Source: Patescibacteria group bacterium
GTDB lineage: Bacteria; Patescibacteriota; Minisyncoccia; UBA6257; HR35
Direction: 5' to 3'
Length of the DNA: 28,948 nt
NCBI GenBank assembly: GCA_023480925.1
Contig: JAMCWY010000012.1
Span: 1 to 28,948, forward strand
Positions 4,135 to 25,288 of the stretch are shown one piece after another. The position numbers and the translations under genes are program-made. Position 1 is the first letter of the stretch. Every line of letters begins with the position of its first letter. The notes under the pieces are model-generated. The model was not told where the DNA came from. It did no database searches and saw only the letters and a list, made by a program, of their open reading frames with translations.

Positions 4135-4171
4135 AGTCTAATTGAGAAAACATCTCTCAATCAGACTTTTT
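4135..4171 (+). terminator. Rho-independent terminator candidate closing the aspS/tRNA-Leu unit
   Basis: 13-bp stem agtctaattgaga / tctcaatcagact (one mismatch) with a 7-nt loop, followed by a T-run (ttttta). Confidence 0.5.
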
Positions 4172-4207
4172 ACTGAACATACCCCTAAGATCAGTTATAA
4201 TAAAAAC

Positions 4208-4652: not shown

Positions 4653-4987
4653 TATCAGAGACCAAGAAACAAGAAAACCGAAATTGGTGCAATGGAATGA
4701 GTCGAGAGCAATACAAAAAAGCGCGTGAAATCATTAATTTGTGGCCGGTTTTATATACTTAAGCAGAAAGCGACTCTTATAATTTTTCTACTGCCTTCCG
4801 CGAAGGCGACGTGACCAGGATAGGATGGACGCGGGGAAAAATGAACATCACCTCGCCCGAGCGTTCAGTTTGGCGCGCGAAGCACGCCGTCGACAACCGA
4901 AAGGAGATAAAAAAGATAGAAATACTGAAACCGTCACAACTCTGGCAACCCGATGGTTTGGCAAAACTAAACTCTCGGTTTTTTTCT

Positions 4988-5371
4988 TTATCCAATATCT
5001 TTTTTAAATTCCTTGGCTCTCGCCTCGTCCAATTTATATTTAACCCAATTTTCCCTTATTAACTTAAAAGCAAGTCGTCCTTCCCGGTGGAACATTGGAA
5101 CACCGATAAGAGTATTACACTTTGGACATGTGAACCTCGGCATTTTTTTAACAGTCATCGTTTTGTCGTTTTGAAGTTCCGCGTATTTTGTTGGCGCAAA
5201 AATGCGATTAAGATAACACCTGAATAATTTGCCGTGTTCGTCCTTTTGATCCAATAAAATATCTTGCTCGCATTGAACGCAGGATATTTTCCACCATTCG
5301 GCGTAGCTATCTCGATCGCGGAAAAATTTATCTCTCCGAAACGAAAACGAGGTAACTGTAATTTCTTTCAT
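4988..5371 (-). CDS. Hypothetical protein with two CxxC pairs (zinc-ribbon-like)
   Basis: 127-aa ORF with CVQC...CPKC. A near-consensus promoter sits immediately upstream. I recognise no family. Confidence 0.55.
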   Translation of the reverse strand: MKEITVTSFSFRRDKFFRDRDSYAEWWKISCVQCEQDILLDQKDEHGKLFRCYLNRIFAPTKYAELQNDKTMTVKKMPRFTCPKCNTLIGVPMFHREGRLAFKLIRENWVKYKLDEARAKEFKKDIG

Positions 5372-5379
5372 GTACCTAC

Positions 5380-5409
5380 ATTATAAACAAACAGCCGCTT
5401 TTTCGTCAA
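5380..5409 (-). promoter_or_regulatory. Sigma-70-type promoter TTGACG-18 nt-TATAAT, 8 nt upstream of the ATG (near-leaderless transcript)
   Basis: Minus strand reads ttgacg aaaaagcggctgtttgtt tataat gtaggtac ATG. There is no SD between the -10 and the start. Confidence 0.4.
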
Positions 5410-5452
5410 TCAAATCACAAAATAGCGATAACCACCAATTTTCATAAAACTC

Positions 5453-5499
5453 GCGGGCAAAAAATTTTCCCCCCCAAACTCCCTCAATTTTTTCCCGCG
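5453..5499 (-). terminator. Hairpin downstream of the MFS gene (possible terminator)
   Basis: cgcgggcaaaaaatt ... aattttttcccgcg inverted repeat. On the minus strand it is followed by agtttta, a weak T-run. Confidence 0.3.
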
Positions 5500-5548
5500 G
5501 ACAAAAACGAAGCCAAGTCGCCCTACTTAAAAAATTAAGGGCAGAGGT

Positions 5549-9715: not shown

Positions 9716-10813
9716 TTATTCCGTTTTGATCAGATCGATTATGGCGATTTCTAAGGCCAAGGTCGGCACGGGTAAATTATCGCGCGAGAAAAACTCCGCT
9801 TCAATCATAACCTTAATCGCTTGACGAATCTTAACCAGATCAATTTTGACCGTAATCTCCTCCAATCGGCCAACGATCTCAGCCGGATAACGATGGTTAA
9901 GCTGATTTAACCAAGACGGCAAAACTTTTAAAATCAAAATTTCCCGCAAAAATTTAATTGTCTCCCGAGTCAGAAGAGACAAATCAAAACCATTTTCATA
10001 ATTTGACTGGATAAATTTAATCGCCGCTTCGCTTTTATTTTCGAAAATCATCGCGATAAAATCCAAAATTTTTTCCGAGCTTAACTTACCTAAAAACTTT
10101 TCGACCAACTCGCCGTTTAATTTTTCATTATCGCCCAAACTTAAAACAATCCGTTCCAACAACGCTTCGGCATCGCGAAAAGCGGCGCCGCTTTCGGTCG
10201 CGATTAAAGCTAAAACTTTTTCATCGGCTGAAATTTTTTCCGCTCGGGCGATTAGTTCGAGTTTACGAATGATCGCGGTTAAAGTTGCGCGCTGAAAATC
10301 AAACCGCTGAATTCGAGAAAGAATCGTCGGTAAAATTTTTTCCGGTTCGGTCGTGGCGAAAATGAAAATAGCGTGTTTGGGCGGTTCTTCTAAAAGTTTA
10401 AGCAAGGCGTTGCCGGCCGCTTGGCTTAACATATGAGCTTCGTCGATAATTAAAACTTTAAAACGGCCTTGAATCGGTCTGAAGCCGATATTATCTTTTA
10501 TATTCCTAATTTCATCAACGCCGCTATGAGAGGCGGCGTCAATCTCGACCAAATCCATAAAACGGCCTTGGTTAATCGCCTGGCAATTAAGACATTGGTC
10601 GCAAGGTTCGAGCTGATTAATGTTGAGACAATTTAAAGTTTTAGCGAAAATTCTGGCGGTTGAAGTTTTGCCCGTGCCCTTTGGCCCGGCGAAAAGATAA
10701 GCCTGGGGCAATCGTTCGACATCCTTAAGGAAATTTTGTAGAATTTTGACGATTAGTTCTTGACCGATCAGTTCAGAAAATTTTCGCGGCCGATATTTCT
10801 GGTAAAACATCAC
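9716..10813 (-). CDS. dnaX: DNA polymerase III gamma/tau subunit, gamma-length (domains I-III only)
   Basis: GPKGTGKTS Walker A, a Cys cluster CDQCLNCQ, IIDEAHML and the SRIQRF sensor. The likely start is ATG 10810, overlapping the rpoD TGA by 1 nt. Confidence 0.9.
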   Translation of the reverse strand: MMFYQKYRPRKFSELIGQELIVKILQNFLKDVERLPQAYLFAGPKGTGKTSTARIFAKTLNCLNINQLEPCDQCLNCQAINQGRFMDLVEIDAASHSGVDEIRNIKDNIGFRPIQGRFKVLIIDEAHMLSQAAGNALLKLLEEPPKHAIFIFATTEPEKILPTILSRIQRFDFQRATLTAIIRKLELIARAEKISADEKVLALIATESGAAFRDAEALLERIVLSLGDNEKLNGELVEKFLGKLSSEKILDFIAMIFENKSEAAIKFIQSNYENGFDLSLLTRETIKFLREILILKVLPSWLNQLNHRYPAEIVGRLEEITVKIDLVKIRQAIKVMIEAEFFSRDNLPVPTLALEIAIIDLIKTE

Positions 10814-12030
10814 TTCAACCTTTGAATTAATGGGTGAGAACGCAATCTTTCAATCGCCTTAATTTCAAGTTGACGAACGCGTTCGCGCGTTACGCCGAAA
10901 ATTTTGCCTATCTCTTCCAAGGTATGAGGAATGCCATCCTTAAAACCAGAGCGTAACATTAAAACTTGCTTCTCCCGTTCGGGTAAATCCTGAATCGCGA
11001 TTTTTAATTTTTCCCGCGAGATTGCCAAGATCGCTTCTTTCTCCGGACTAACCGATTTTTCATCTTTAATTAACTCGCCCAAGACCGTTTCGCCCTGTTC
11101 ACCGACCGGCTTTTCCAAGTAAGTCACGTCCTGGGTTAGTCGCAAAAGTTTTTGAACCTTACGCGAAGGTAAATCAAGTTGAGCGGCAATTTCTTCCGGC
11201 GCCGGCTCGCGACCAAGTTGTTCGACCAAATTTTTTTTAACCTTGTTCATTTTGTAAAGCGCCTCGATAATGTGGACGGGCAAACGGACAGTCCGAGCGT
11301 GATCCGCCATCGCTCGCGTAATCGCCTGACGAATCCACCAGGTCGCGTAAGTCGAAAATTTAAAACCTTTGCGATAATCGAACTTATCCGTCGCTCGGGC
11401 CAAACCAATATTTCCTTCTTGAATCAAATCAAGAAAAGTAAGTTTTTTGCTCCGACCGTAATACGTTTTAGCGATGCTGACAACCAGCCTCAGATTGGAT
11501 TTGATTAACCGCTCACGCGCTTCGAGATCGCCCTGAAAAGCTTTCTTGGCCAACTCTTTCTCTTCGCTCAAATTTAAAAGCGGGTATTTTCTCAGTTCCA
11601 AGAGGTATTTTTGAATACTGTCCGGGACCTCGTCTTTCAAACTCCCGGCGATTTTTTTTAGGCCACCTTTCGTTATCATTTCGTCCAAATCCCAAAGTTC
11701 GCCACTGCTTTTTAATTCGATCCCGGCCGTTTCCAATCGTTCATTAATTTCTTCAAGCAAGCCGAGATCTTTTTCAATACTGGGAAAGTAATGAAGGATT
11801 TCATCTTCGGTCACGAACCCGCGCGCCTTGCCCTTTTGAATCAAATCTTTAATTTTCGCCTGATCGATTTCAGTTAATCGCCGTTTTGGCTTAATCTTCT
11901 CTTTGTTTTTTTCCAAAACCTGTTTTGTTTTTTTATTGGCTAAAATCGCTTTCGTTCGAACCTGACTGATTTTCTTTTTTAATTTTGTTTTAGTTTTAAC
12001 CCGAGTCTTTTTTTTAATTATCTTGGTCAT
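10810..12030 (-). CDS. rpoD: Primary sigma factor (sigma-70 family)
   Basis: Region 2 has DLIQEGNIGLARATDKFDYRKGFKFSTYATWWIRQAI. Regions 3 and 4 have LEEIGKIFGVTRERVRQLEIKA. Confidence 0.93.
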   Translation of the reverse strand: MTKIIKKKTRVKTKTKLKKKISQVRTKAILANKKTKQVLEKNKEKIKPKRRLTEIDQAKIKDLIQKGKARGFVTEDEILHYFPSIEKDLGLLEEINERLETAGIELKSSGELWDLDEMITKGGLKKIAGSLKDEVPDSIQKYLLELRKYPLLNLSEEKELAKKAFQGDLEARERLIKSNLRLVVSIAKTYYGRSKKLTFLDLIQEGNIGLARATDKFDYRKGFKFSTYATWWIRQAITRAMADHARTVRLPVHIIEALYKMNKVKKNLVEQLGREPAPEEIAAQLDLPSRKVQKLLRLTQDVTYLEKPVGEQGETVLGELIKDEKSVSPEKEAILAISREKLKIAIQDLPEREKQVLMLRSGFKDGIPHTLEEIGKIFGVTRERVRQLEIKAIERLRSHPLIQRLK

Positions 12031-12032
12031 TT

Positions 12033-13751
12033 TTAATTCGTCGATTTTTCTAATTCGTTAATTTTTTTTGAATAATTCTCGGCTTCGACTAAAATTTTTT
12101 CGACCTCGTCGGCCTGAGCCAATTTTAAACTCTGCCGGAGCAGTTCGATTCGGCGATGAAAATAATCTTTTTTTAATTCCTTTGCGATCAAATCAAACTC
12201 GTTCTCAAGAGCCTGATTTAAACCCTTCGAATCCTTCTCATACTCGCCTCTTAAACGCAATACTTCAACTTCTTCGTCGTCAATGTCGGTTTGATTGATA
12301 ATTTTTCCAACCAAATCTTTTTTTTGTTCCAAATAATCCCGATAAGATTCCAAAATCGCCTGCCGTTTTAAAACCAAGACCAAAGCCAAAAACCTTTCGG
12401 CTAAAATTGATTGGCGATCGCCCAACTCCGCGCCAAGATTTAAATTAACTCCGGTCGAACCATTGACCGAACCAATACTAGCCGGTTTAAACCACTCTTC
12501 AATTTTAATTTTTTTCAGCTCGGAAATCAAGAGCGGTTCGGCCACGCGGGTTTGTTCCGAAAGCCGCGTCAACCAAAGTTGAGCCTCGGCCGGATTAAGC
12601 AATTTTAACTGGGGTAAAAAAAATTCGATCATCGCCTTCCGACCAATGACTTGACTTAGATCAAACTTCTTCAAACTAAGATTAAATAAATAGTCTAAAA
12701 GCGGCAACTGATTTAATTCAGCCAAACTAAAACCTTGACCAAAAAAATCACCCAGATCTTTGATCGGTTTTTCTTGATCGCGATTAGATTGACCGAAATC
12801 CAACTTACCCAACTCAAAGTCGGCTCGGAGAAAAAGCAGAGCCGAACGAAGAGTCGCTTTAAGACCGGCTTCATCTTCGTCTAAGGCAAAAATAACTTTT
12901 TGACAAAATCTTTTTAAGAGCTTGACTTGATCTTCGGTTAAGGCGGTGCCGGAGAGAGCGACAATATTTTTTAAGCCGGCTTGAAAAGCCAAAAGCCAAT
13001 CCATTTGGCCTTCGACCAAAACCGCTTCTTTCTTTTTTTTAATCTCATCCAAACTCTCAAACAAACCGTAAACGAATTGTGATTTTTTGAAAAGAATCGT
13101 TTCGGACGAGTTAAGATACTTGGGCGTGTTTTCCGCTTCTTTTAAAATTCGACCGGTGAAACCAACCAGACGGCCAAACTGATTAACGAAAGGAAAAATA
13201 ATTCGTCCTTGAAAACGGTCTTCTCGACGCGAATTCAAAAAACCGGCTGCCTCGATTTCGTTAATCGCCTTGCCTTTTTTGAGCAAAAAATCACGTAGAC
13301 CCGAACCAAAAGGGACGTAGCCGAGCCGGAATTGTTCAATCGTCTCTCGGCTCAAACCGCGTTTTAAAAGATAAGCGATCGCCAATTGGTTTTCTTGAAG
13401 CTTCGATTGAAAAAATTCCAAAGCCAATTGGTTCAAAGCCAATAGCTTGACCCTGGCCGTCTGATCGGCCTGATCGCTTAGATTTAATTCAAGACCAAGA
13501 CGTTCGGCTAAAATTTTAATTCCCTCTTTAAATTCAAGTTTCTCGATCTTAAGAAAAAAAGCGATCGCGTCACCGCCTTCGCCGCAGCCAAAACATTTCC
13601 AGATTTGTTTTTGGCCCGAAACGAAAAAAGACGGCGACTTCTCCGAATGGAAAGGACAAAGACCGCGATAGTAACTGCCGGCCCGCCTCAGCGGCACGTA
13701 GCCGTTGATAAACTCGACGATGTCAATTTTATTTTTAATTTCCTCAATCAT
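12033..13751 (-). CDS. dnaG: DNA primase
   Basis: Zinc finger CPFHSEKSPSFFV...CFGCGEGGD and TOPRIM VLVEGQMDWL ... ALDEDEAG. Confidence 0.93.
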   Translation of the reverse strand: MIEEIKNKIDIVEFINGYVPLRRAGSYYRGLCPFHSEKSPSFFVSGQKQIWKCFGCGEGGDAIAFFLKIEKLEFKEGIKILAERLGLELNLSDQADQTARVKLLALNQLALEFFQSKLQENQLAIAYLLKRGLSRETIEQFRLGYVPFGSGLRDFLLKKGKAINEIEAAGFLNSRREDRFQGRIIFPFVNQFGRLVGFTGRILKEAENTPKYLNSSETILFKKSQFVYGLFESLDEIKKKKEAVLVEGQMDWLLAFQAGLKNIVALSGTALTEDQVKLLKRFCQKVIFALDEDEAGLKATLRSALLFLRADFELGKLDFGQSNRDQEKPIKDLGDFFGQGFSLAELNQLPLLDYLFNLSLKKFDLSQVIGRKAMIEFFLPQLKLLNPAEAQLWLTRLSEQTRVAEPLLISELKKIKIEEWFKPASIGSVNGSTGVNLNLGAELGDRQSILAERFLALVLVLKRQAILESYRDYLEQKKDLVGKIINQTDIDDEEVEVLRLRGEYEKDSKGLNQALENEFDLIAKELKKDYFHRRIELLRQSLKLAQADEVEKILVEAENYSKKINELEKSTN

Positions 13752-14304
13752 TTTTAACTCTTTCCAAATATTCTTTTTTGTCGATATTAACCAAAATCAA
13801 ATCGCCCGCCTTGATGAAAAGCGGCGCTTTAATTTCCGCGCCGGTTTCAAGAATAACAACCTTACTTCCGGCCTGGACCGTGTCGCCCTTCAAACCCGGC
13901 GGCGCTTCGACGACCAGGTACTTCGCCTTAATCGGCAATTTCAGCCGGACCAACCGATCGTCAATAAAAATAGCCCGAATGGTCAAATCAGTTTTAAGAA
14001 AGTCAATTTGATTAGCCAAATTTTTTTTCGCCAGGGAGTAACGACGATTGTCCGAATCGGCCAAATAAACATTGGTTTTGTCTTGATCAAGATACTCCAC
14101 GTCTTTTTCTTCCGAATCAACCGCCTTAACTTCTTCATCCGACTTAAAATTTCTCGTCAAGGTTTGACCGGTGGTTAAATTTTTCACGATCAACTCGATC
14201 GTCGCCTTGCCCCGACCAAGATGAGTGTGAGTGATTTTCCCAACTTCAAAATAATTGCCGTCGAGAATAATAATTGTGCCTATTTCAACTTGATTAATTT
14301 TCAT
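13744..14304 (-). CDS. efp: Elongation factor P
   Basis: Collinear with E. coli EF-P over its full length, with C-terminal PGLKGDT. The loop tip reads HLGRGKA. Confidence 0.93.
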   Translation of the reverse strand: MKINQVEIGTIIILDGNYFEVGKITHTHLGRGKATIELIVKNLTTGQTLTRNFKSDEEVKAVDSEEKDVEYLDQDKTNVYLADSDNRRYSLAKKNLANQIDFLKTDLTIRAIFIDDRLVRLKLPIKAKYLVVEAPPGLKGDTVQAGSKVVILETGAEIKAPLFIKAGDLILVNIDKKEYLERVKND

Positions 14305-15805
14305 TCTGGAATTTTTTAAAAAGTTCTTCTAAGCGATCAACTTCGACTCGATTCTGTTTTTCTGCCTTCGGTTTAAAACCCGCCTCGAGTTTTTTTTCTT
14401 TCAAACTTTCAAGCGAAATCGTATTTTTTGAAGATTGGGCCTCGCAGTTTGGACAAAGACTGCCTTCGTCGTAACGATTTTTCCAAAAAGCCTCGTGGCA
14501 ATTTTCGCAATAAACCAAGATCATGTTTTCTTTTCTCGCTTCGCTATATTTTTGAGCAATCGCTTTTTCAACAAAACGTTTCGCTCGGCTATAACGCGAC
14601 CGACTCAAGTTAATCAGTTCGTTTCGGTAACTGACCGAAGGCGAATCCGGCATCGCCAACGTCTCGGCCAAAAACGGCCGACTGGCGATCCCGTCAACCA
14701 ATAATCTGACGTAAATGTTGTATTTTTCCAAGTTAGTAAAGTCATCAACCGTGACTTCGCTAAATTCGCGTTCAAACTGTTCACTGTCAATCCCGCCCAA
14801 ACGAAAAACAATAAAAGTGCCGAGATTGCCAAAAATCGCCTTGATAATAGTTTCTGGCAACTGGTCAAGATACTGATGGGCGAGAATTAAACTTAATCGG
14901 TATTTTCGAGCTTCGGATAAAATATTGACGAACGAATCGGTGGCGAAATTTTGGAACTCGTCGACATAAAGATAAAAATCTTTCCGTTCTTCTTCAGCCA
15001 AATCAACTCGACTCATCGCCGCCAGTTGAATTTTAGTGATAAGTAAACCGCCCAAGAGCATTGAACTTTCTTCGCCCAGCGCGCCTTTGGATAAATTAAT
15101 CAATAAAATTTTTTGGTTATCCATAACTTGGCGCAAATTTATCGAAGACTCTTCCTGACCGATAATATTTCGAACAAGCGGATTGGAAATAAACTGACCA
15201 ACCTTGTTTTGGATTGGCGCGATCGCCTCGGTTCGGAAATTGGCGTGATAACGGGCGAACTCTTTTTCCCAAAAACTTTTAACGACCGGATCGCGCAACC
15301 GGCTTACAACACTTTTACGAAAGTCATCGTCGCCAAGGAGGCGGTTAATATCAAGGAGGGTATAATTCGGGAACTCGAGCAAGGCTAGTAAACTGTTCAT
15401 CAAAATATACTCCATCCGAGCCGACCAAGCGTCCACCCAAATCTTCTTAAAAACCGACATCAGGCTCGAAGTAATCAAATGACGAAATTCAAACGGCACC
15501 CGCTCAAGGACATTAAACGAAATCGGATTGTCTAAATCGTTCGGCTCGAAATAAATAACATCGTCCATTCTTTCGCGCGGGATGTAATTTAAAAGTTGGA
15601 AAACACTATCGCCGTGCGGATCAATGTAAGCCAAACCTTCGTTCGTTCTAATGTCATTAACGATCATATTATTAATTAAAGTTGTCTTACCTGAACCGGT
15701 TTTACCGATAATATAAATATGGCGGCGGCGATCTTCGCGCTTAATCCCGAACTTAACGGTTCTATTTCTAAAATTGGTTTGAGCGACAGGAAGAATGTCG
15801 GCCAT
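14294..15805 (-). CDS. TraD/TrwB/VirD4-like (type IV coupling-protein-like) P-loop ATPase without TM domain, C-terminal zinc ribbon
   Basis: Walker A IIGKTGSGKTT lies about 35 aa from the N-terminus. Walker B is FYLYVDEFQNF. ARKYRLSLILAHQYLDQL is present. The C-terminus has CENC-x14-CPNC plus a Lys-rich tail. Confidence 0.75.
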   Translation of the reverse strand: MADILPVAQTNFRNRTVKFGIKREDRRRHIYIIGKTGSGKTTLINNMIVNDIRTNEGLAYIDPHGDSVFQLLNYIPRERMDDVIYFEPNDLDNPISFNVLERVPFEFRHLITSSLMSVFKKIWVDAWSARMEYILMNSLLALLEFPNYTLLDINRLLGDDDFRKSVVSRLRDPVVKSFWEKEFARYHANFRTEAIAPIQNKVGQFISNPLVRNIIGQEESSINLRQVMDNQKILLINLSKGALGEESSMLLGGLLITKIQLAAMSRVDLAEEERKDFYLYVDEFQNFATDSFVNILSEARKYRLSLILAHQYLDQLPETIIKAIFGNLGTFIVFRLGGIDSEQFEREFSEVTVDDFTNLEKYNIYVRLLVDGIASRPFLAETLAMPDSPSVSYRNELINLSRSRYSRAKRFVEKAIAQKYSEARKENMILVYCENCHEAFWKNRYDEGSLCPNCEAQSSKNTISLESLKEKKLEAGFKPKAEKQNRVEVDRLEELFKKFQNEN

Positions 15806-15845
15806 AAAAATAAACTTTTTAAGTTAATTAAACTAAAATTAAAAA

Positions 15846-17138
15846 CTAAAATTCAGCCAGGGGTATTTCCGGCGGCGGCGGGATTTTTTTAACCATTTCG
15901 CGCTCCAAACCCGGCGGCGGCACAACTTTAAGCGGGACATGATAAAGCGAAGCAAGTTCTTCGCTGTTTAGAAGGAAAAGCGAATCAGGCCGGAATTCAC
16001 CCTTGAGATAAAAGTAAAGATATTTTCTCCGAAAAAATAATTTTTCGTTGTAATGAAAATTCGGATAGCTTACAGTTGTAATCATATTTTGATCCGGGAT
16101 CAGAATATTAAAGCCCTCGAAAATTTTCAAAAAACCGAAAATCAAAGCCCGATTTTTGGACAAGTTCGTATCAAAAACGTCGCTCTTGCCGATATAAGCG
16201 GCGCGCAAGCCGGAATAAAAACCGGGTTTGGAAATTTTATTCTCGACGCCAGCAACTTTTTCCTTTTCGGCCGGCGTCAAGTGTTGCATCAACGTCGGCC
16301 ACTGTCTTTCCTTCTCGTCCTTTTGACCAACCTTCCACTCGATTTGAGTAAACGGCGCTAAAAATAAATTTTTCATAAATTCAACGATATAGGCGAACGG
16401 TCCCGGCTCTTCATCTTCTTTCCGACCAATTAATTTGTCTACCACTTTTTTGCCCTCGTCTTTCCACTTGCCGCCGAACAGTTCATCATTACCCGAAACC
16501 GGCATGGCGAAAATTTGAAAAATCAGCCATTCTTTTTCCGAAATGTGATTGCTCCCCTCGGAGATAACACTGATCGGATCAATTTGTTGTTCTTCGGGCA
16601 ATTTTTCCCAAACATCATAAGTGCGTAAGGGATAAACTTGACTGTTATTAACCGGATGACCAAATTTAAAATCGCTTCCCCAGATATCGTAAGTTGGATT
16701 TGGCACTTCGGGCGGCAGGTCAACCAGCGGCTCCTCGACCTCGTTTATAATCGCGTCGGGATATTGAGAATAAATCCGGCTCATAACAAAATCTTTTAAG
16801 ACTTCCGGGCAACGAATGTAAAATTTTAGACGATGATCGTGAAGAACGAGCATAAAAATGTAATAGGGTGGAATAAAACCGTCGATAAAACGGCGATACC
16901 AGTTGCCGGGCCGATAGACGCCTGAGAGCGAACTGAAAACCTCTTCCATCGCCCGGGCGGTCTTAGTTACGCCGGCCGGAATTTTAACTTCAAGATGAAC
17001 TTGTTTGACGCTGCCAAGATAATTAAAACGAACGGTCAGGAAATGTTTGTCCCGAACAATATAATAAGTCACTAATGGCAAAAACAGCCACCAAGAGGAA
17101 AAGAAAAATCCGAAGATGTAATTTAAGTAATCAAGCAT
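15846..17138 (-). CDS. Hypothetical N-terminally membrane-anchored protein (430 aa), partner of the ATPase
   Basis: Hydrophobic N-terminus YIFGFFFSSWWLFLPLVTYYIV, a large soluble body and a proline-rich C-terminus (VVPPPGLE, KKIPPPPEIPLAEF). It lies 40 nt upstream of the ATPase. I recognise no family. Confidence 0.6.
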   Translation of the reverse strand: MLDYLNYIFGFFFSSWWLFLPLVTYYIVRDKHFLTVRFNYLGSVKQVHLEVKIPAGVTKTARAMEEVFSSLSGVYRPGNWYRRFIDGFIPPYYIFMLVLHDHRLKFYIRCPEVLKDFVMSRIYSQYPDAIINEVEEPLVDLPPEVPNPTYDIWGSDFKFGHPVNNSQVYPLRTYDVWEKLPEEQQIDPISVISEGSNHISEKEWLIFQIFAMPVSGNDELFGGKWKDEGKKVVDKLIGRKEDEEPGPFAYIVEFMKNLFLAPFTQIEWKVGQKDEKERQWPTLMQHLTPAEKEKVAGVENKISKPGFYSGLRAAYIGKSDVFDTNLSKNRALIFGFLKIFEGFNILIPDQNMITTVSYPNFHYNEKLFFRRKYLYFYLKGEFRPDSLFLLNSEELASLYHVPLKVVPPPGLEREMVKKIPPPPEIPLAEF

Positions 17139-17161
17139 TCTTCGCCTTAGTCTGGCTAAAT

Positions 17162-18232
17162 CTAAACTCGTTCAACTTCATTGCCGTTTAATTTAAATAA
17201 ATCCCGACGGCGAATGTAAATTTCAAAAGTTGTCCGCGAAATCATTTTTGCCTTTTGAACTTCGCACCAAAGTTTTTCTTTTTCAATCCGCCGCGCCCGG
17301 CTAACCAGTTCTTTAAGCAACTCGATCGTTTCGCCGTTGTAATAGCCCCATCTTTTAAGCGCGTATATGCCTCGTCCGGCCAAGACAACTTCGGGGTCAA
17401 GAATCATCTGATTATGGATCGACTCGACGCTGTAGTCTTTCCGCCAATGGTCGCTCAAAAAATCGTCTTTGAAATCAAGAAATTGATTAAGTTTGTGATG
17501 AATCGTTTTAAAATGAAGCGGCTGGCCCTCCATTTCAAAAATCAGCCTGATTTTTTCTTTCAGCGATGGCGGTGAAATTAAAATATGGTTGCTCAAACCA
17601 AATTGGCTGTAAGGATTTTTGCCCAAAACTTTAATGATTCGGATAAAACCAAAAATTTCCGATTCAGGCGGATTAACGTTTAGATGCTTTTTAATCTCGA
17701 CTAAAACGAAATTATAAATTTTTGACTCAGACCAAACCTGGGTTGGCTCTTCTAAAAATTTGAACAAAAGTCTTTTAAGAATGTGCCGGGCCAAATTAAG
17801 ATTTTTTTCGGTCTGGCTAAAATAAGCGTGGAAATTATCGTCCTCCGGATAAATTTGAAACTGACGCGCTTGCCGCAGAAAAAATCGCGACGCCCTTAAA
17901 TTATTTTCCTGATTAAACTGATAATATTCTTTTAATTTTTGGAGCAACGACGCCTCGCGTCTTAAAGCCAACGGCCCGAGTTGTTTCGCCGCGGTTCGAT
18001 TAAGTTGATTAACGACTGGATTTTTTTGAATCGCAGCCGAAATCGAATTCAGCGATCTCGCCTGAATTTGTCTGATTCGCTCTCGAGTCAAATTGTAATC
18101 GTCGGCGATATCTTGAAGCGACTCGGCCGGTTCGACCAAACCATAACGTCTTCGAATAATATCGCCTTCACGTTCGCTTAACCCGCTTAAAACTTCGTCA
18201 ACGGTTTTACTTAAATTTAAAGTTTCCGCCAT
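17162..18232 (-). CDS. Sigma-70 region-4 HTH protein with long unknown body and HARE-HTH-like C-terminal region
   Basis: N-terminus LSEREGDIIRRRYGL...SLQDIADDYNLTRERIRQIQARSL matches sigma region 4. C-terminus PLHFKTIHHKL...VLAGRGIYALKRWGY resembles the HARE-HTH of the RNAP delta subunit. Confidence 0.65.
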   Translation of the reverse strand: MAETLNLSKTVDEVLSGLSEREGDIIRRRYGLVEPAESLQDIADDYNLTRERIRQIQARSLNSISAAIQKNPVVNQLNRTAAKQLGPLALRREASLLQKLKEYYQFNQENNLRASRFFLRQARQFQIYPEDDNFHAYFSQTEKNLNLARHILKRLLFKFLEEPTQVWSESKIYNFVLVEIKKHLNVNPPESEIFGFIRIIKVLGKNPYSQFGLSNHILISPPSLKEKIRLIFEMEGQPLHFKTIHHKLNQFLDFKDDFLSDHWRKDYSVESIHNQMILDPEVVLAGRGIYALKRWGYYNGETIELLKELVSRARRIEKEKLWCEVQKAKMISRTTFEIYIRRRDLFKLNGNEVERV

Positions 18233-19420: not shown

Positions 19421-21109
19421 TTGGAACAAATGAATAAAACCGAATTAAAAAAAAAATTGGAAAAGCTGGCTGACCGAGTTTTGGCTGACGATTTCGAGAT
19501 AATCAAGGCCCGGCTGGCGCTTAATTTAAGCGACAAACTCGAGCATGGCGACTACTCGACCAACCTTCTTTTTCTCGTCAGCCAACTAAAAAAAATTTCT
19601 CTTGGCCAAGCGTTTGACTTATTCCAAAATAAAATTTTAAGCTGGCTTGAGGTCGAAAAAATCGAACTCGTGAACGGTTATCTTAATATTTTTTTGAACC
19701 AAAAAGTTCTTTGGCAAGATTATAAGATTGGCTTAAAAAAAATTTTGGCTGGTTCAAAAAATAAAATCGGCCGGGGTAGAAAAGTTTTGGTTGAATACGT
19801 CTCGGCCAATCCAACCGGTCCTCTGACTTTGGCTAATAGCCGCGGCGCCGTCATCGGCGACTGTCTCGCCAAAATTTTAAAACTGACCGGTTTTAAGGTC
19901 GAACGCGAGTATTACGTCAACGATCGAGGCAATCAAATAAAAATTCTCGGCCAAACTTGCCTAGCTCAACTTGGCTTAATTCCTTTCGCGGAAAATTTCT
20001 ATCAAGGCGAATACGTCAAAACAATCGCCCGAGAGAACAAAAACAAAATTTTAAAACTGAAGGAACCGGAAAAAATTGGCCGGTTCGCCGCCAATATAAT
20101 TTTGAAAGATTTGATCAAAAAACCGCTGAAGAAATTTGACGTTCAATTTGACAATTATTTTTTTGAATCAAATCTTTACCGTGGCCAACCTAAAGAAAAA
20201 ATTTTAAAGTTGCTCGAGAAAAAAAATTTGGTCGAAAAAAAAGACGGCGCTCTTTGGTTAAAACTAAGCCAGACGGGCGAAAGTAAAAATGAAGTTCTAA
20301 TCAAAAGTAACGGCGAAGAAACTTACTTCCTTTCCGATCTTTTGTACCATTACAATAAGTTAGTCGAACGAAAAAATAAATTGGCCATTAACATCGTCGG
20401 TGCCGATCATCTTGACCACACGCGGAGATTAAAAAAGGCGATGGATTTGATTCTTGGTTCAAAAGGCGAAATCAATTTTATTATTTACCAGTTCGTCCAT
20501 CTAATCAAAGATCAAGAATTAATTCGGATGTCAAAAAGAAAAGGCGTCTATATTTCTCTGGCGGATCTGATTGAAGCGGTTGGTCCGGATCCGATCCGGT
20601 TTATCTTTCTTCGTTCAAGCCCGGACAACCAAGTCGAGCTTGATCTTGAATTAATTAAAAAAGAATCTCTAGACAACCCTATCTGGTACATTCATTACAC
20701 TTATGCCCGGATCAACGGCATTCTCAAAAAAGCCAAAGCGGCCAGAATCAAACCGACGACCAACGCCCTTGTCTCTTTTAACCAACTATTCAACCAGCCG
20801 GATTACCAAATTCTCTGGCGCAAGATGCACCAACTCCCCGACCTGATCGAAGATATCGCTTTCGATTTTCGCGTTAATCTCCTGACGACATGGATTTTGG
20901 ATTTAAGTAAACTGATCAATCAATTTTATGAACGGGAAAAAATTTTAAGCCCGGACAAAAAAGAAACGGCCAATAAAATTCTTTTCCTAATTTTTCTGAA
21001 AACCAGCCTTGATTTTAGTTTTGACCTTCTTGGCTTTACGCCGAAAAATAAACTTAACCGCCTCGATCGCGACCAAGGCAATAAGGAAACCCAAAACCCA
21101 ACCGGTTAA
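19421..21109 (+). CDS. argS: Arginyl-tRNA synthetase (likely start ATG 19430)
   Basis: SANPTGPLTLANSRG, GADHLDH, MSKRKG and a DALR-type C-terminal domain ending LLGFTPKNKL, plus a 17-aa extension. Confidence 0.92.
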   Translation: MEQMNKTELKKKLEKLADRVLADDFEIIKARLALNLSDKLEHGDYSTNLLFLVSQLKKISLGQAFDLFQNKILSWLEVEKIELVNGYLNIFLNQKVLWQDYKIGLKKILAGSKNKIGRGRKVLVEYVSANPTGPLTLANSRGAVIGDCLAKILKLTGFKVEREYYVNDRGNQIKILGQTCLAQLGLIPFAENFYQGEYVKTIARENKNKILKLKEPEKIGRFAANIILKDLIKKPLKKFDVQFDNYFFESNLYRGQPKEKILKLLEKKNLVEKKDGALWLKLSQTGESKNEVLIKSNGEETYFLSDLLYHYNKLVERKNKLAINIVGADHLDHTRRLKKAMDLILGSKGEINFIIYQFVHLIKDQELIRMSKRKGVYISLADLIEAVGPDPIRFIFLRSSPDNQVELDLELIKKESLDNPIWYIHYTYARINGILKKAKAARIKPTTNALVSFNQLFNQPDYQILWRKMHQLPDLIEDIAFDFRVNLLTTWILDLSKLINQFYEREKILSPDKKETANKILFLIFLKTSLDFSFDLLGFTPKNKLNRLDRDQGNKETQNPTG

Positions 21110-21535
21110 AACATCAAAAGGCCAGTGACGCAAGGATAAAATTCTCAAAAGGCCGACTAAAATTGAATCAAAAATCAAGGCCAGGCCGAAATCAAAGTAA
21201 TTGTAAAAAACGACAAAAGCAAGCGTCGTGATAAAAAGGGTGTGACGCGAAGGAAAACTGTCAAAACTTTGGAATTGAGGGTAATAGTAGCTAATCGGTC
21301 TCAGCTCGGGAAAACTTTTGATCAACCATTCGGAAATTAAAAGAGCCAAAAGCAAGCCCAAACAAACTTCGAAAAAAATATACCAGTCAAAATGATTTTT
21401 TTTCAGACCGTCATAAAACCAAAGAATAAAAAAAAGCGTTAGCGGCGCCGCGACCAAAATTGTACTCAAGTAATCAAAAGCAAAAAGAAAAAATTCGTGA
21501 CCGTGAAAAACCTGAAAAATTATTCGACTGATCAT
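20987..21535 (-). CDS. PAP2-family lipid phosphatase (undecaprenyl-diphosphatase-like)
   Basis: KSFPELRP, FPSRHT and SLRHWPFDVLTG give the three PAP2 motifs, with multiple TM helices. Confidence 0.8.
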   Translation of the reverse strand: MISRIIFQVFHGHEFFLFAFDYLSTILVAAPLTLFFILWFYDGLKKNHFDWYIFFEVCLGLLLALLISEWLIKSFPELRPISYYYPQFQSFDSFPSRHTLFITTLAFVVFYNYFDFGLALIFDSILVGLLRILSLRHWPFDVLTGWVLGFLIALVAIEAVKFIFRRKAKKVKTKIKAGFQKN

Positions 21536-21667
21536 AAATTAATCACTAATCATAAAAATTAATTGATTATAGCACAGGTGATTATAATTAAGATGATCAA
21601 TTTTATTCTTGGCGAAAAAATTTTTGATTTTGCTCGAATGGGTTTAAATTTCGTTTAAAATCTTAAA

Positions 21668-23110
21668 ATGTCTAAATTAAGCGACCTAATTTTAAAAAAC
21701 ATCTCAACCAAACAAACTTTGGTTAAGAATAGTTTTTGGCTGGTTTCGGGAAAATTCCTCGCCGGCCTTTTTCGCGCTTTAATCGTGATCGTTTCAGCCA
21801 GACTTTTGGGCGCTTCCGCCTACGGCTCTTTTTCTTTGGCGATGAGTTTTGTTTTAATATTTTCCTTCTTGCCTGAATTCGGTTTAAGCACGATCTTGAC
21901 GCGCGAACTGGCCAAAAAGAAAAACGATTACGAAACATTTTCTCTTATCTCAACCATTACGCTTGGCTTTAGTTTTATCTCCTATCTGATTATTTTTTTG
22001 GCCGATCGGTTTTTTATTAAAGATCCGGTCGCTCTTTCAATCGTGCCCTTGCTCGGCTTGATGATGATCGTTGACGTCCTGCGCGAATACGGCTATGGCG
22101 TCTTCCAAGCCCAAGAGCGAATGGAAATCCAAGGCGGCCTTCACCTTCTGACAAACTTTTTAATTTTCGGACTTGGTCTTATCGCCCTTCGCCAAATTCG
22201 ATCGCCCCTTTCGCTTTCGATCGCTTACTTTGTTTCCGTCTCGATCGGCTTCGGCCTCGGCCTGTTTTTTCTTAAAGCCTTTCTTAAAAACTATCGGCCC
22301 AGATTCAATCTCGAAAAAACAAAACAAATTTTTATGTCCGCCCTGCCAATCGCCCTGTCCAACTTTCTTCTCTTGCTTTTAATTTTTATCGACTCGATTA
22401 TTCTCGGCTGGTTTCACTCACCCCGCTTAGTCGGTCTCTACACCTCGTCGGTCAAAATCAGCCAGTTTTTAATCCTCTTTCCCCAAAGCATCGCCTTGGC
22501 CGTTTTCCCGATGATGTCAAAATTTATTCACGAGAAAGAAAAACTGAAAGAAACGACCGAGTTGGGCTTAAAACTTTCAATCATTCTGATGCTGCCCTTG
22601 ACTTTCGGCATTTTTATCTTAGCGAGTAAAATTATTCTTCTTATTTTTGGACCGGCTTACTTCGCCTCAATCCCAGCCTTACGCATAATTATCTTTTCTC
22701 TCCTCGGCACCTTTCCTTTTCTCCTTCTCTCAAATCTTTTGATCGCCCTGGATAAGCGAAAAGAACTGTTGATTTTCGACCTGATCTTGGTTGTGATCAA
22801 TGTCGGCCTCAATCTGCTTCTAATTCCAAAATTCGACCTCCTCGCCGCCAGCTACAACACGACCCTGGCCAATCTCCTCGGCTTTGTTTTCGCTCACGCT
22901 GTCAGTCAGCGTTACGTCAACTTCGACTTTTGGCCATTTCTGCCAAAACCGCTGCTGGCCACGGCCGGAATGAGTTTGTTCCTCATTAGTTTAAAAAGTT
23001 TTTCTCTTCTCATTCTCCTGCCCGGCGCCGTTATCGTCTATCTTCTTGGCCTTTATTTAATTAAAGAAGAAATTACGGTTAAAATAATTCAAGGCTTAAA
23101 AAGACAATGA
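21668..23110 (+). CDS. MOP-superfamily polysaccharide/oligosaccharide flippase (Wzx/MurJ-like)
   Basis: 480 aa with about 12-14 TM helices. The N-terminus KNSFWLVSGKFLAGLFRALIVIVSARLLG is typical of the Polysacc_synt family. Confidence 0.8.
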   Translation: MSKLSDLILKNISTKQTLVKNSFWLVSGKFLAGLFRALIVIVSARLLGASAYGSFSLAMSFVLIFSFLPEFGLSTILTRELAKKKNDYETFSLISTITLGFSFISYLIIFLADRFFIKDPVALSIVPLLGLMMIVDVLREYGYGVFQAQERMEIQGGLHLLTNFLIFGLGLIALRQIRSPLSLSIAYFVSVSIGFGLGLFFLKAFLKNYRPRFNLEKTKQIFMSALPIALSNFLLLLLIFIDSIILGWFHSPRLVGLYTSSVKISQFLILFPQSIALAVFPMMSKFIHEKEKLKETTELGLKLSIILMLPLTFGIFILASKIILLIFGPAYFASIPALRIIIFSLLGTFPFLLLSNLLIALDKRKELLIFDLILVVINVGLNLLLIPKFDLLAASYNTTLANLLGFVFAHAVSQRYVNFDFWPFLPKPLLATAGMSLFLISLKSFSLLILLPGAVIVYLLGLYLIKEEITVKIIQGLKRQ

Positions 23111-24249
23111 AAATTTTAATCGTTTCGGAATCTTTTCCGCCCCACATCTCCGGCGTCTCCGTTTTTGTTTCTCAGTTAACCAATCATCTGATCAAAAATA
23201 AAAATCAGGTTATCGTGTTCACCAACAGCAGCGGCTTTAAATTTAGAGAAGAAGAAAAAGAAAACGGTCGACTAAAAATTTTTTCCTTTCCCTCTTTTCC
23301 TAACCCCTTCCGGACCAAACTCCGAATCGCCCTGCCATCGCGAAAAATTTGTTCAATCATTAAAACCGAACGACCGGATCTAATTCACATTCAAGATCCC
23401 GGTTTTCGTTCCCGCCAAGTCATTTTTGAAGCGAAAAAACTTCACTTGCCCATCATCGTCACCCACCACTTCACCCTGGCGATGATTGAAAGTTATCTGC
23501 CGAAATTTTTGAAAAATACCGGTCGGAAGAAAACAATTAACTACTTAAAAAAATTTTACGCTCAAGTTAACTTAATCACCTGCCCGAGCGATTTTGTCAA
23601 AAACGAACTTAGTTCAATGGGAATCGAGAAAAAAATCTTGGTTGTCTCAAACGGCGTTGACTTGGAACAATTCAAGGTCGGCCGAACGGTCAAAAAAGAA
23701 ACACCGCTCATTCTTCACGTTGGCCGAGTCGATCCGGAAAAAAATATTTCCGTTTTAATCAAAGCGGCCGAGTTGATCTTAGCCAAAGTTAAAGCGACAT
23801 TTATTTTCGTCGGCGACGGCAAACTTTTAAAACGTTATCGTCGGTACGTTAAAAACAAAAAATTGTCGGGCGCGATTAAATTTATCGGAAGCGTACCGCC
23901 CCAAAGCCAAAAATTAATCGATCTTTACCATCAAGCTTGGTTTTTTTGGATCGCCTCAAAAGCGGAGAGTCAAGGCATCGTTGTCCTTGAAGCGCTCGCG
24001 ACAGGCCTGCCCGTGATCGGAATTAAAAGCGGCGGCTTGGCGGAAATATTCAAAGACAATCAGGCTGGTTTTCTTCTTGAAAACGATCAGAATAAAAATT
24101 TTGCCGATAAGGCCTTGTCTCTTATTGACCAACCTCAACTTCGCCAGAAATTTTCGGAAGAAGCATTAGTTGAAGCAAAAAAATATTCGATTGAAAAAAC
24201 CTTAGCCGAATACGACGGCATCTATCGCCAACTGGTTAAATCTAAATAA
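23107..24249 (+). CDS. Glycosyltransferase, GT4 (GT-B fold)
   Basis: N-terminal ILIVSESFPPHISGV. C-terminal ESQGIVVLEALATGLPVI carries the EX7E motif. ATGA overlap with the flippase gene. Confidence 0.88.
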   Translation: MKILIVSESFPPHISGVSVFVSQLTNHLIKNKNQVIVFTNSSGFKFREEEKENGRLKIFSFPSFPNPFRTKLRIALPSRKICSIIKTERPDLIHIQDPGFRSRQVIFEAKKLHLPIIVTHHFTLAMIESYLPKFLKNTGRKKTINYLKKFYAQVNLITCPSDFVKNELSSMGIEKKILVVSNGVDLEQFKVGRTVKKETPLILHVGRVDPEKNISVLIKAAELILAKVKATFIFVGDGKLLKRYRRYVKNKKLSGAIKFIGSVPPQSQKLIDLYHQAWFFWIASKAESQGIVVLEALATGLPVIGIKSGGLAEIFKDNQAGFLLENDQNKNFADKALSLIDQPQLRQKFSEEALVEAKKYSIEKTLAEYDGIYRQLVKSK

Positions 24250-24253
24250 AATT

Positions 24254-25288
24254 TTAGGCCGTCTGAAAACTTCGCCAAATCGCCAAAAGAATAAAATCAG
24301 AGATTAGATAAGAACCGCCGTAACTTAAAAACGGCACAGGGACACCCATAATCGGGAAAAGACCGACGTCAACCGCGGTCATTAAAACAAACCTCAGACC
24401 AAATTGAACCACAAGCAAAAAGGCGAAAGATTTTGCCAAAGGATCGGCGACAAACCGAGACTCGACGTAGATGGTTCGAAGAAACAAAAAAACCAAAAAT
24501 AAGAAAAAGACGAATCCGACCAAACCCCACTCCTCGACAAAACTATCTAAAATAAAATCGGTTTGGCTTGAAGGCAAGAAACCAAGTCGCGCCTCAGTTC
24601 CGCCGCCCAAACCCCGGCCGAAAATTCCGGCCGAACCAATCGTAATTTTCAGTTGACGCAAATTATAACCGCTACCAAGGACATCCTTGTTGGACGAGAA
24701 TAAGGTTAAAACTCTTTCTTTTTGATAAGGTTTAAAAACAAAAAACCAGCCGATAATAAAAATTAAAATTAAGATCAGGCCCCAGCGGAAAAATTGTTTT
24801 TTACTCATAAAACCAATAACGCTAAAAAACCAAGTCAGAAAATAAATAAGAGCCGTGCCGAAATCCGGTTCAAGTAAAATAAGCAGAATCAGCGGCAGAA
24901 CCAAAATAAAACTCAAAAGGAGGTACCGATCTTGATTTAGCTTTGAAGAAAACTTCGCCAGAAAAACGCTCAGAATTAACAAAAGACCGATTCGGCCGAA
25001 TTCCGACGGCTGGAAAGAACCAAAGCCCCGATTCAAACCGGAACGAAAATGCGAGGGGAGAAAAAAGACGCCGACCAAAAGAATGATAACAATCGCCAAA
25101 ACGAGACCAAAGTAAGGCCGACGAAAAACATTTTTATAACTAATCCAATAAGAACTGAAAAAAATCAGCCAGCCGGCCAACCAAAAAATCAATTGGCGCT
25201 CGAATAAGGTTTGGCGACCAATCGAAAAAAGCGTAACCAAGCTAATCAACATAAAAAAAACCAATATCAAAGCGATCTTCATTGTCAA
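24254..25288 (-). CDS. SEDS-family protein (FtsW/RodA)
   Basis: QPSEFGRIGLLL, TDFILDSFVEEWG and GVPVPFLSYGGSYLI, with about 9-10 TM helices. Confidence 0.9.
   Translation of the reverse strand: MTMKIALILVFFMLISLVTLFSIGRQTLFERQLIFWLAGWLIFFSSYWISYKNVFRRPYFGLVLAIVIILLVGVFFLPSHFRSGLNRGFGSFQPSEFGRIGLLLILSVFLAKFSSKLNQDRYLLLSFILVLPLILLILLEPDFGTALIYFLTWFFSVIGFMSKKQFFRWGLILILIFIIGWFFVFKPYQKERVLTLFSSNKDVLGSGYNLRQLKITIGSAGIFGRGLGGGTEARLGFLPSSQTDFILDSFVEEWGLVGFVFFLFLVFLFLRTIYVESRFVADPLAKSFAFLLVVQFGLRFVLMTAVDVGLFPIMGVPVPFLSYGGSYLISDFILLAIWRSFQTA

Follow-up and report, generated by a model that had tools for sequence, protein, structure and literature searches.

A DUF8128 protein and a TrwB-like ATPase without transmembrane domain, encoded side by side in Patescibacteria and related to fused coupling proteins of plasmids and phages

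The window analyzed here, i.e. the whole stretch of 28,948 nucleotides, is contig JAMCWY010000012.1 of the Patescibacteria group bacterium assembly GCA_023480925.1. According to the table of open reading frames (ORFs), three consecutive genes on its minus strand encode a 356-aa protein with a sigma-70 region 4 and a probable HARE-HTH domain (17162-18232; referred to as sigma4), a 430-aa protein of the family DUF8128 (15846-17138) and a 503-aa P-loop ATPase (14294-15805). We are highly confident that the DUF8128 protein and the ATPase each make up half of a single coupling-protein-type machine, the fused form of which is found in Gram-positive conjugation modules. We lean towards the reading that this pair is a type IV coupling protein (T4CP) of the monoderm kind in split form, which is chromosomally fixed and vertically inherited throughout the Patescibacteria and feeds these bacteria's type IV secretion system (T4SS). 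The sigma4 protein would bind DNA or RNA polymerase and is a conserved neighbor with a probably separate, essential role.

The ATPase, the DUF8128 protein and their fused counterparts

The ATPase is a soluble P-loop motor with the TrwB/VirD4 fold, coupling-protein-like and devoid of a transmembrane domain. Walker A (GKTGSGKT, residues 34-41, positions 15683-15706, minus strand), the Walker B region (LYVDEFQNF, residues 279-287, 14945-14971, minus strand) and ARKYRLSLILAHQYLDQL at residue 299 were read directly from the sequence. Among 39 homologues, G34, K35, T36, G37, G39, K40 and T41 of Walker A are invariant, as are Y280, D282, E283, F284 and Q285 of Walker B. Close to the C-terminus, a zinc ribbon of the pattern CxxC-x14-CxxC (residues 433-454, 14444-14509, minus strand) is formed by CENC from residue 433 and CPNC from residue 451. 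Its four cysteines are at least 90% conserved in the same 39 homologues, a tail modeled with low confidence follows, and relatives of the ATPase are annotated as CxxC-x17-CxxC proteins.

The protein exceeds the Pfam gathering cut-offs of TrwB_AAD_bind (33.3 vs. 20.5 bits), TraG-D_C (30.1 vs. 22 bits) and T4SS-DNA_transf (27.9 vs. 20.1 bits), and stays far below the cut-offs of the named T4CP types in NCBIfam (SXT_TraD 45 vs. 366, conju_CD1115 43 vs. 250, TraD_Ftype 18 vs. 521). FtsK_SpoIIIE reaches 20.5 against a cut-off of 24, covering residues 25-50 only, and DUF87/HerA is marginal with 24.5 against 23.2. Beyond the P-loop, there is no family-level match to the FtsK/SpoIIIE and HerA translocases. 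A segment of transmembrane grade was not found in the ATPase; the highest 19-residue Kyte-Doolittle mean is 1.36 and Walker A is reached already at residue 34. The ATPase belongs to a very large family; significance was reached by each of the 8,000 candidates scored.

An AlphaFold2 (AF2) model based on the alignment of the 39 homologues has a predicted local distance difference test score (pLDDT) of 84.9, with confidence dropping past residue 422. Compared to the PDB using Foldseek, its top match is TrwBdeltaN70 (E 2e-13, target-normalized TM-score 0.63-0.66, about 410 columns). Cag-beta, DotL and HerA come next, HerA with TM-scores of 0.46-0.50. Residues 105-230 are all helical in the model and correspond to the inserted all-alpha domain of the TrwB/VirD4 fold. 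In sequence, the match to TrwB and DotL is confined to the surroundings of the P-loop. A preliminary description of the window, made from the letters alone, had called the ATPase coupling-protein-like and free of a transmembrane domain of its own, and the T4CP families in Pfam, the TrwB fold and the hydropathy values agree with it.

Two further observations concern relatives of the ATPase. The PADLOC profile mad8 of the MADS defence system matches residues 26-366 (5e-18), and weak HerA matches occur too; the mad8 match is probably a matter of shared ATPase ancestry, and other mad genes are absent nearby. The alphaproteobacterial plasmid NZ_CP081110 of Sulfitobacter mediterraneus encodes a lone ATPase of 395 aa (locus L085, 6983-8170; 39% identity, E 8e-85), which is flanked by a recombinase and transposases and has no annotated DUF8128 partner.

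The 430-aa protein had been taken for a member of no recognizable family. Neither NCBIfam nor a Pfam version without PF26449 holds a model that matches it, but the precomputed domain PF26449, which is DUF8128, is present in homologues of 30-51% identity (E down to 1e-145). The window protein has no such precomputed hit itself and is assigned to this family via homology. A DUF8128 profile search in a library of 1.84 billion proteins gave 3,777 representative clusters; the best 150 of these matches are stand-alone proteins of about 400-570 aa only, with no distant fused forms among them. No mention of DUF8128 was found in the literature searched. The AF2 model of the protein has a pLDDT of 86.3 and a predicted TM-score (pTM) of 0.81. 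When it was compared to the PDB using Foldseek, all 13 matches at E ≤ 0.001 (7e-5 to 6e-4) were TrwK/VirB4 chains, which belong to five entries, and the next matches followed only at about 1e-2. At its N-terminus, AF2 predicts a single long helix for residues 2-43, which together with hydropathy delimits an aromatic-rich hydrophobic helix at residues ~5-29 (17052-17126, minus strand). In the family, the 19-residue Kyte-Doolittle mean of this helix has a median of 1.7 and is ≥ 1.6 in 21 of 33 members, and the helix is likely a membrane anchor.

The connection between the two proteins comes from fused forms. A tblastn search with the ATPase detected plasmid and Bacillus phage proteins of 810-880 aa (25-33% identity, E down to 7e-57), to whose N-terminal ~320 residues the DUF8128 alignment could be aligned using hhalign. 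This holds for an 883-aa protein of a Shouchella clausii plasmid (NZ_CP012476; probability 98.7, E 2.6e-16), for gp156 of phage G (probability 97.6, E 4e-12) and for an 812-aa protein of an Embleya plasmid (NZ_CP108778; probability 93.9). The alignments covering the whole N-domain (Shouchella and phage G) end at a conserved LNxEELASLxHxP, just ahead of the start of the ATPase in the fused proteins. A Foldseek search against viral models matched the DUF8128 model to the predicted structure of gp156 (2e-16). In the phage family phrog_5156 (824 positions), both halves were found in the same order, with DUF8128 matching positions 75-290 (6e-5) and the ATPase positions 387-811 (1e-67). The 430-aa protein had been proposed as the partner of the ATPase, which the existence of fused versions of both corroborates.

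A fusion also appears to exist within the candidate phyla radiation (CPR). SEML1_0293 of Candidatus Southlakia epibionticum has 921 aa with TrwB_AAD_bind at residues 402-719, and is apparently a natural fusion of DUF8128 and ATPase because its length is near the sum of both halves in other Saccharibacteria.

The plasmids with fused proteins are hosted by Bacillaceae and Streptomycetaceae. On the Shouchella plasmid and on pBM69 of B. methanolicus, in which the fused protein has 833 aa, the genes encode a primase, the fused protein, a Replic_Relax protein, TcpC, TcpE and a VirB4 (AAA_10 type, about 840 aa). On the Embleya plasmid, the order is PrgI family protein, VirB4-like ATPase, fused protein, replication-relaxation protein and NlpC/P60. 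The fused proteins hold the coupling-protein slot of Gram-positive-type conjugation modules, beside relaxase-family genes. The preliminary description had counted it against its own reading if the 430-aa protein matched a conjugation component, with homologous trios beside relaxases on mobile DNA. In part this is what was found, as the protein is homologous to the N-domain of plasmid proteins encoded next to relaxase-family genes, whereas the sigma4 gene is absent there.

In phage G (locus L086, JN638751, 3196-7338), a VirB4-like gp155 (P-loop_TraG, AAA_10) precedes gp156 with its DUF8128-like N-domain and T4CP-like ATPase. The fused family phrog_5156 also occurs in other Bacillus and related phages, e.g. 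JL, Shanette, CP-51, SP-10 and CampHawk. A pair of T4SS-type ATPases in lytic phages is puzzling.

Gene order across Patescibacteria and surroundings of the locus

The DUF8128 profile detected at least 551 loci in species-representative genomes, and 80 species loci were analyzed. For the adjacency counts of the trio and of secD-secF, only loci with enough flanking sequence entered the denominator. Most of the 80 loci are labeled as Patescibacteria (Saccharibacteria, Paceibacterota, Moraniibacteriota, Magasanikbacteria, Nealsonbacteria, Yanofskybacteria, Wolfebacteria and others). About nine carry other taxon labels, among them Gammaproteobacteria, Bdellovibrionales and two archaeal names, and are suspected to be mis-binned contigs.

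In 67 of 71 species loci, the ATPase gene comes directly after the DUF8128 gene (median gap 14.5 nt; 12 overlapping pairs). Directly upstream of DUF8128, the sigma4 gene was found in 65 of 74 loci (median gap 23 nt; 8 overlaps), and the full order sigma4, DUF8128, ATPase is present in 55/66. Further upstream, secD and secF directly precede this array on the same strand in 48 of the 61 loci evaluated (e.g. L074:6418-8753), and secA lies beyond them in 26. Either this adjacency of secD and secF goes back to an ancestral gene order, or the array is functionally linked to protein export. Frequent downstream neighbors are pgk, a gene for a DHH phosphoesterase, mnmA and the RNase H gene. Where the ATPase gene has moved elsewhere (L001, L004), the sigma4-DUF8128 pair is intact. 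Homologues of Replic_Relax, TcpC, TcpE and PrgI were not found near the 80 loci at BLAST-level sensitivity with few, distant queries. The trio is an ancient, chromosomal, vertically inherited array and is not part of a mobile element; the chromosomal nature assumed at the outset is borne out by the same order across species loci and by the failure of these searches to find mobile-element genes. As a side observation, the FtsH gene beside the sigma4-DUF8128 pair in L004 (9360-12503, minus strand) carries an intein (PF14890; product of 1047 aa).

The preliminary description had joined the trio to an operon of efp, dnaG, rpoD and dnaX, and had suggested a survey of gene neighborhoods. While the trio itself proved conserved, the link to efp and dnaG did not: efp is present in 16/80 loci, directly after the ATPase gene in 12, with 10 copies on the opposite strand, and dnaG/rpoD follow the module in only 4/80 (L006, L007, L063 and L084). 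The attachment to efp-dnaG-rpoD-dnaX is local to this sub-lineage. In GCA_026004515.1 (L091, 6001-8065), the ATPase gene is located ~90 kb from the sigma4-DUF8128 pair, yet overlaps efp by 14 nt. The overlap being kept despite this unlinking suggests that ATPase and efp are a locally conserved transcription or translation unit in the sub-lineage.

In the window, 23 nt separate sigma4 from DUF8128 and 40 nt DUF8128 from the ATPase gene. The latter overlaps efp (elongation factor P; 13744-14304; Pfam EFP_N and Elong-fact-P_C), a housekeeping neighbor, by 11 nt. Then follow dnaG (12033-13751; 8 nt overlap with efp), rpoD (10810-12030), which starts 2 nt after the end of dnaG, and dnaX (9716-10813; 4 nt overlap with rpoD), each identified by Pfam. 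All are on the minus strand, and dnaG-rpoD-dnaX (9716-13751) form a lineage-specific downstream context outside the module. Checked against the ORF table and the sequence, the coordinates, gaps, overlaps and motifs given earlier for the trio were exact in every case. Pfam scans confirmed Sigma70_r4, EF-P, DnaG, RpoD, DnaX and the tryptophanyl-tRNA synthetase (TrpRS) in and around the trio, and the neighbors were rightly described as core information-processing genes.

The Pfam scans took in 18 of the larger ORFs of the window, and five ORFs at 19421-25288 were named only via precomputed hits on an identical assembly. By these two routes, most other large ORFs were recognized as housekeeping genes, i.e. 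ComEC parts, a class II aminoacyl-tRNA synthetase, a major facilitator superfamily (MFS) transporter, superoxide dismutase, apurinic/apyrimidinic (AP) endonuclease, arginyl-tRNA synthetase, a flippase, a glycosyltransferase and FtsW. Three ORFs near the right end matched no Pfam family, and two tRNAs are present. Homologues of relaxase, VirB4, TcpC, TcpE and PrgI were not detected in the window using tblastn, a search whose few, distant queries limit its sensitivity, and Pfam found no integrase or other mobile-element gene among the 18 larger ORFs. GC content is even, with 0.40-0.43 over the trio and 0.35-0.46 across the window. Both results are in line with the preliminary description, which had noted the lack of such genes and a native-looking composition. 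The identical gene arrangement occurs in three independent assemblies and is, therefore, not an assembly artefact. Between positions 9400 and 19500, a consensus scan gave 22 promoter-like sites (16 ± 4.3 in shuffled sequence) and 16 terminator-like sites (15.2 in shuffled sequence). Since these counts are no better than those of shuffled sequence, they have no bearing on operon structure.

Two observations lie apart from the module. ComEC is encoded in two overlapping ORFs on the plus strand, 340-999 with the Competence domain and 965-1765 with the Lactamase_B domain; this may be due to a frameshift, an assembly error or a natural split, and the first ORF may extend past the start of the window. 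ARAGORN predicts a tRNA-Leu(GAG) at 3990-4072 (plus strand), which is below the Rfam gathering threshold, and the following ~1.4 kb (4073-5548) hold short ORFs only.

Function of the pair and competing readings

As a split T4CP, the pair would work as follows. The 503-aa product would be the soluble motor, built from a RecA-like P-loop domain and an inserted all-alpha domain as in TrwB/VirD4, and by analogy with these would form an NTP-driven hexameric ring. T4CPs recognize substrates or adaptors via C-terminal extensions, and the predicted motor carries a conserved C-terminal zinc ribbon plus a flexible tail. DUF8128 has one hydrophobic helix, and its alpha/beta domains are modeled with a likeness to the N-terminal half of VirB4; it most likely tethers the motor to the membrane and docks it onto a channel. 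For this tethering and docking of a TrwB-like hexameric motor, our confidence is moderate. The pair would take a macromolecular substrate, DNA or protein, and pass it to a T4SS which is encoded elsewhere in the genome and related to the Gram-positive class MPF-FATA (MPF, mating-pair formation).

Published data provide the frame for this reading. Quinonero-Coronel et al. 2025 (PMC12102498) counted 5,713 VirD4-type homologues in 2,918 of 3,035 Patescibacteria genomes, VirB4 of the Patescibacteria clade in 2,407 assemblies and relaxases in 103 genomes; they describe the T4SS of Patescibacteria as chromosomal and of MPF-FATA ancestry, and raise exaptation of the VirD4 homologues. In Southlakia, the T4SS cluster is essential and lacks recognizable coupling and relaxase proteins (Wang et al. 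2023, PMC10633639). Its VirB4, VirB6 and VirB8 homologues are among SEML1_0006-0019. According to Table S1 of that study, SEML1_0294, which combines sigma4 with HARE-HTH, is core, enriched in Patescibacteria and essential by transposon sequencing (Tn-seq). The adjacent SEML1_0293, the apparently fused T4CP, is core and enriched as well, but non-essential, with normalized reads going from 5817 to 2940 and 1372 over the passages. A second paralogue, the FtsK-like SEML1_0142, is essential (same table).

Several points weigh against a split T4CP that serves the T4SS. Only 148 of the 5,713 t4cp homologues lie near virB4, and T4CP homologues occur in more genomes than VirB4 of the Patescibacteria clade (2,918 vs. 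2,407; PMC12102498). Within 10 kb, a VirB4-like ORF was found by BLAST in one of the 80 loci, and this is a fragment; genes for VirB4, VirB6, relaxase and pilin were likewise not found in the window. SEML1_0293 is non-essential where the T4SS is essential, which argues against an obligatory role in the T4SS. Based on tblastn, the ATPase has 49-61% identity to the 80 species-level loci across Patescibacteria classes, compared to 44-62% for RpoD, 38-50% for DnaX, 34-42% for DnaG, 28-38% for EF-P, 26-48% for DUF8128 and 22-38% for sigma4. For a coupling protein, such RpoD-like conservation is out of the ordinary and suggests that a housekeeping constraint acts on it. Wider spread than VirB4, extreme conservation, lack of a relaxase and dispensability where the T4SS is essential all speak for exaptation. 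Concerning the docking half, the TM-scores between the DUF8128 model and TrwK/VirB4 are modest (0.30-0.37), the DUF8128 profile gave nothing at E ≤ 10 against PDB sequences, and hhalign against single VirB4-like sequences (the Shouchella AAA_10 protein and phage G gp155) was negative. Because of the modest TM-scores and these negative profile tests, the VirB4-N-domain-like fold predicted for DUF8128 is kept as a lead, with homology not established. The N-terminal helix has a Kyte-Doolittle mean of 1.46 in the window copy, which is borderline. The family supports the membrane anchor proposed earlier, and for the window copy we infer it, owing to this borderline value. Ancestry and the matching MPF-FATA origin nevertheless make service to a T4SS slightly more likely than exaptation. 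The VirB4-like fragment belongs to a close relative, Parcubacteria KatS3mg096 (L007, 20844-21317, minus strand), and lies ~8 kb downstream of the ATPase gene at the edge of the locus.

A possible alternative, to which we give less credence than to a T4SS-feeding coupling protein, is an exapted housekeeping translocase, i.e. a split coupling protein by ancestry that is now a core nucleic-acid or protein motor independent of the T4SS. It might handle DNA at division, import or export DNA or RNA at the interface with the host, or act in connection with Sec export. Near-universal occurrence, core status and enrichment in Patescibacteria, the RpoD-like identity of the ATPase and the missing relaxase all fit this explanation, as does the fixed chromosomal place among core genes with secD-secF and partly secA upstream, and exaptation was raised by the authors of PMC12102498 themselves. 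However, a core role is hard to square with a gene that is non-essential in Southlakia co-culture, although its reads drop markedly; for chromosome segregation, the essential paralogue SEML1_0142 is the better candidate, and the secDF synteny may be mere ancestral gene order. We know of no interaction between Sec and a T4CP. A more specific form of the idea is doubtful: the near-universal pair, no longer an accessory of conjugation or of a T4SS, as an autonomous, membrane-docked translocase for nucleic acid (or protein) that serves these auxotrophic epibionts in a core task, e.g. in moving host-derived or own DNA or RNA across the membrane. The essential sigma4/HARE-HTH protein and the secDF neighborhood would then stand for a true functional coupling with transcription and export.

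The sigma4 protein raises the question of a larger unit. It contains a sigma-70 region 4 helix-turn-helix (residues 14-64, 18041-18193, minus strand; Pfam Sigma70_r4, E 4e-11) and a probable HARE-HTH winged helix (residues ~235-297, 17342-17530, minus strand). The latter was placed by the family alignment, in which F241, G286, G288, Y290 and L292 of this stretch are invariant; the window copy itself has no HARE-HTH match at E ≤ 0.01. Sigma70_r4 was found in 36/36 members of the family and HARE-HTH in 34/36, and sigma region 2 or 3 in none of the 36. The family profile matches region 4 structures of RpoD/SigA (2e-20), but without region 2 the protein is not a sigma factor. A paper on HARE-HTH together with region 4 was not found, and a search for HARE-HTH with sigma returned nothing relevant. 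In sigma factors, region 4 makes contact with both the beta flap and the -35 element, and the delta subunit of RNA polymerase has the HARE-HTH fold. The protein could be a so far uncharacterized factor that associates with RNA polymerase and either resembles delta or competes with region 4 of sigma. The idea of a cryptic relaxase was dropped, as the protein has no similarity to the plasmid replication-relaxation protein.

All three genes had been regarded as one module in the preliminary description, and sigma4/HARE-HTH might then be a DNA-binding adaptor which brings DNA to the motor, like a relaxosome accessory protein. The tight spacing between sigma4 and DUF8128, the persistence of this pair where the ATPase gene has been relocated and the two or more DNA-binding HTH modules of the protein favor this idea, and T4CPs do use DNA-binding accessory proteins (PMC7434980). 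We nonetheless consider it unlikely. Of the two neighboring genes in the Southlakia Tn-seq data (PMC10633639), sigma4/HARE-HTH is essential and the apparently fused T4CP is non-essential, and therefore the three genes need not form one functional unit and the main role of sigma4 cannot be to serve the motor. Its two domains are moreover RNA-polymerase-associated modules, similarity to plasmid replication-relaxation proteins is missing, and the sigma4 gene is absent from the plasmid and phage loci.

It is very improbable that the pair is a split VirB4-type ATPase with DUF8128 as the VirB4 N-domain and the 503-aa protein as the VirB4 C-terminal ATPase. This is what the exclusively TrwK/VirB4 chains among the significant PDB matches of DUF8128 would suggest, and the ATPase domains of VirB4 and T4CPs are homologous (PMC12102498). 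Yet the ATPase model fits best on TrwB, Cag-beta and DotL, with no VirB4 chain in the top 50 Foldseek matches; its Pfam matches are T4CP families, with P-loop_TraG below the cut-off and the monoderm VirB4 family AAA_10 unmatched. Each plasmid or phage locus has a separate VirB4-type gene (AAA_10 or P-loop_TraG) next to its fused protein, which argues against a split VirB4, and the fused protein adjoins the relaxase-family gene. Patescibacteria also own a distinct VirB4 clade (PMC12102498).

Least probable of all is that the pair is left over from an integrated conjugative element or acts as an anti-phage defence ATPase, either of the HerA type or like mad8 of MADS: plasmid and phage homologues and the mad8 and HerA matches notwithstanding, position and order are the same in 80 species-level genomes of many classes, composition is even, the family is flagged as core in Southlakia, and integrase, relaxase, other mad genes or a nuclease partner were not found nearby in the Pfam and tblastn searches, and the defence reading was rejected for its missing partner genes and the fixed place in the core genome.

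Comparison with known systems

A large part of bacterial diversity consists of Patescibacteria, and Southlakia, the sole species with Tn-seq data, needs its chromosomal T4SS for epibiotic growth. In the published view, no coupling protein can be recognized in the T4SS cluster, and exaptation is considered possible for the scattered VirD4 homologues. Already known are the ATPase family with its unusual location in CPR genomes and coupling proteins without transmembrane domain that have membrane partners. As far as we searched, three things are new: DUF8128 as the detached, sometimes fused, N-domain of this coupling-protein clade, its predicted VirB4-N-domain-like fold, and the phylum-wide array of secD, secF, sigma4/HARE, DUF8128 and ATPase. 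DUF8128 thereby gains a first functional context, the conserved array becomes a target for genetics in the tractable Southlakia system, and sigma4/HARE-HTH stands out as an essential, CPR-enriched protein with a putative role in transcription.

The preliminary description could not map the arrangement to a described system, but close relatives have been published. The VirD4-type homologues of Patescibacteria (PMC12102498) belong to the same family and are, as here, chromosomal, near-universal, far from virB4 and without relaxase; that study does not include the DUF8128 half, the split and fused architectures, the sigma4/HARE neighbor or the secDF synteny. In Southlakia, SEML1_0294 is located immediately upstream of SEML1_0293, like the sigma4 gene here, but SEML1_0293 is one protein of 921 aa where the window has two genes 40 nt apart. 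Both halves of the fused proteins from monoderm plasmids and of phage G gp156/phrog_5156 are homologous to the window pair. These are single polypeptides on mobile DNA, accompanied by Replic_Relax plus TcpC/TcpE/AAA_10 or by PrgI/VirB4-like/NlpC-P60, none of which is found beside the genes of the window.

With respect to VirB4, the DUF8128 model aligns to TrwK chains of five PDB entries at the modest TM-scores given above and without sequence or profile similarity, and unlike VirB4 the DUF8128 protein has no ATPase domain of its own. A T4CP lacking the transmembrane domain is a recognized subfamily that relies on membrane partners, e.g. TraJ/TraI of pIP501 (PMC7434980). The principle is the same, i.e. 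a soluble coupling ATPase and an adjacent gene for a membrane protein, and the likeness is one of architecture. TraI-type partners, however, are small membrane proteins (PMC7434980), whereas the DUF8128 protein has 430 aa with large folded domains predicted to be cytoplasmic.

TrwB of R388 (PDB 1E9R, 1E9S, 1GKI) is the best structural match of the ATPase over nearly the whole soluble domain including the all-alpha insert, and Walker A and B are shared, at an identity of ~16% with the sequence match limited to the P-loop. TrwB has its own two-helix N-terminal transmembrane domain, no zinc ribbon and a plasmid relaxase as partner, in all of which the window ATPase differs. Compared to T4CPs in general, the window ATPase departs in its low scores for the named NCBIfam types, in the association with relaxase or MPF genes, which BLAST with few, distant queries did not reveal, and in the N-terminal transmembrane domain, in place of which the upstream DUF8128 gene contributes a hydrophobic helix; it shares with them Walker A and B, the TrwB-like fold and Pfam scores above the T4CP cut-offs.

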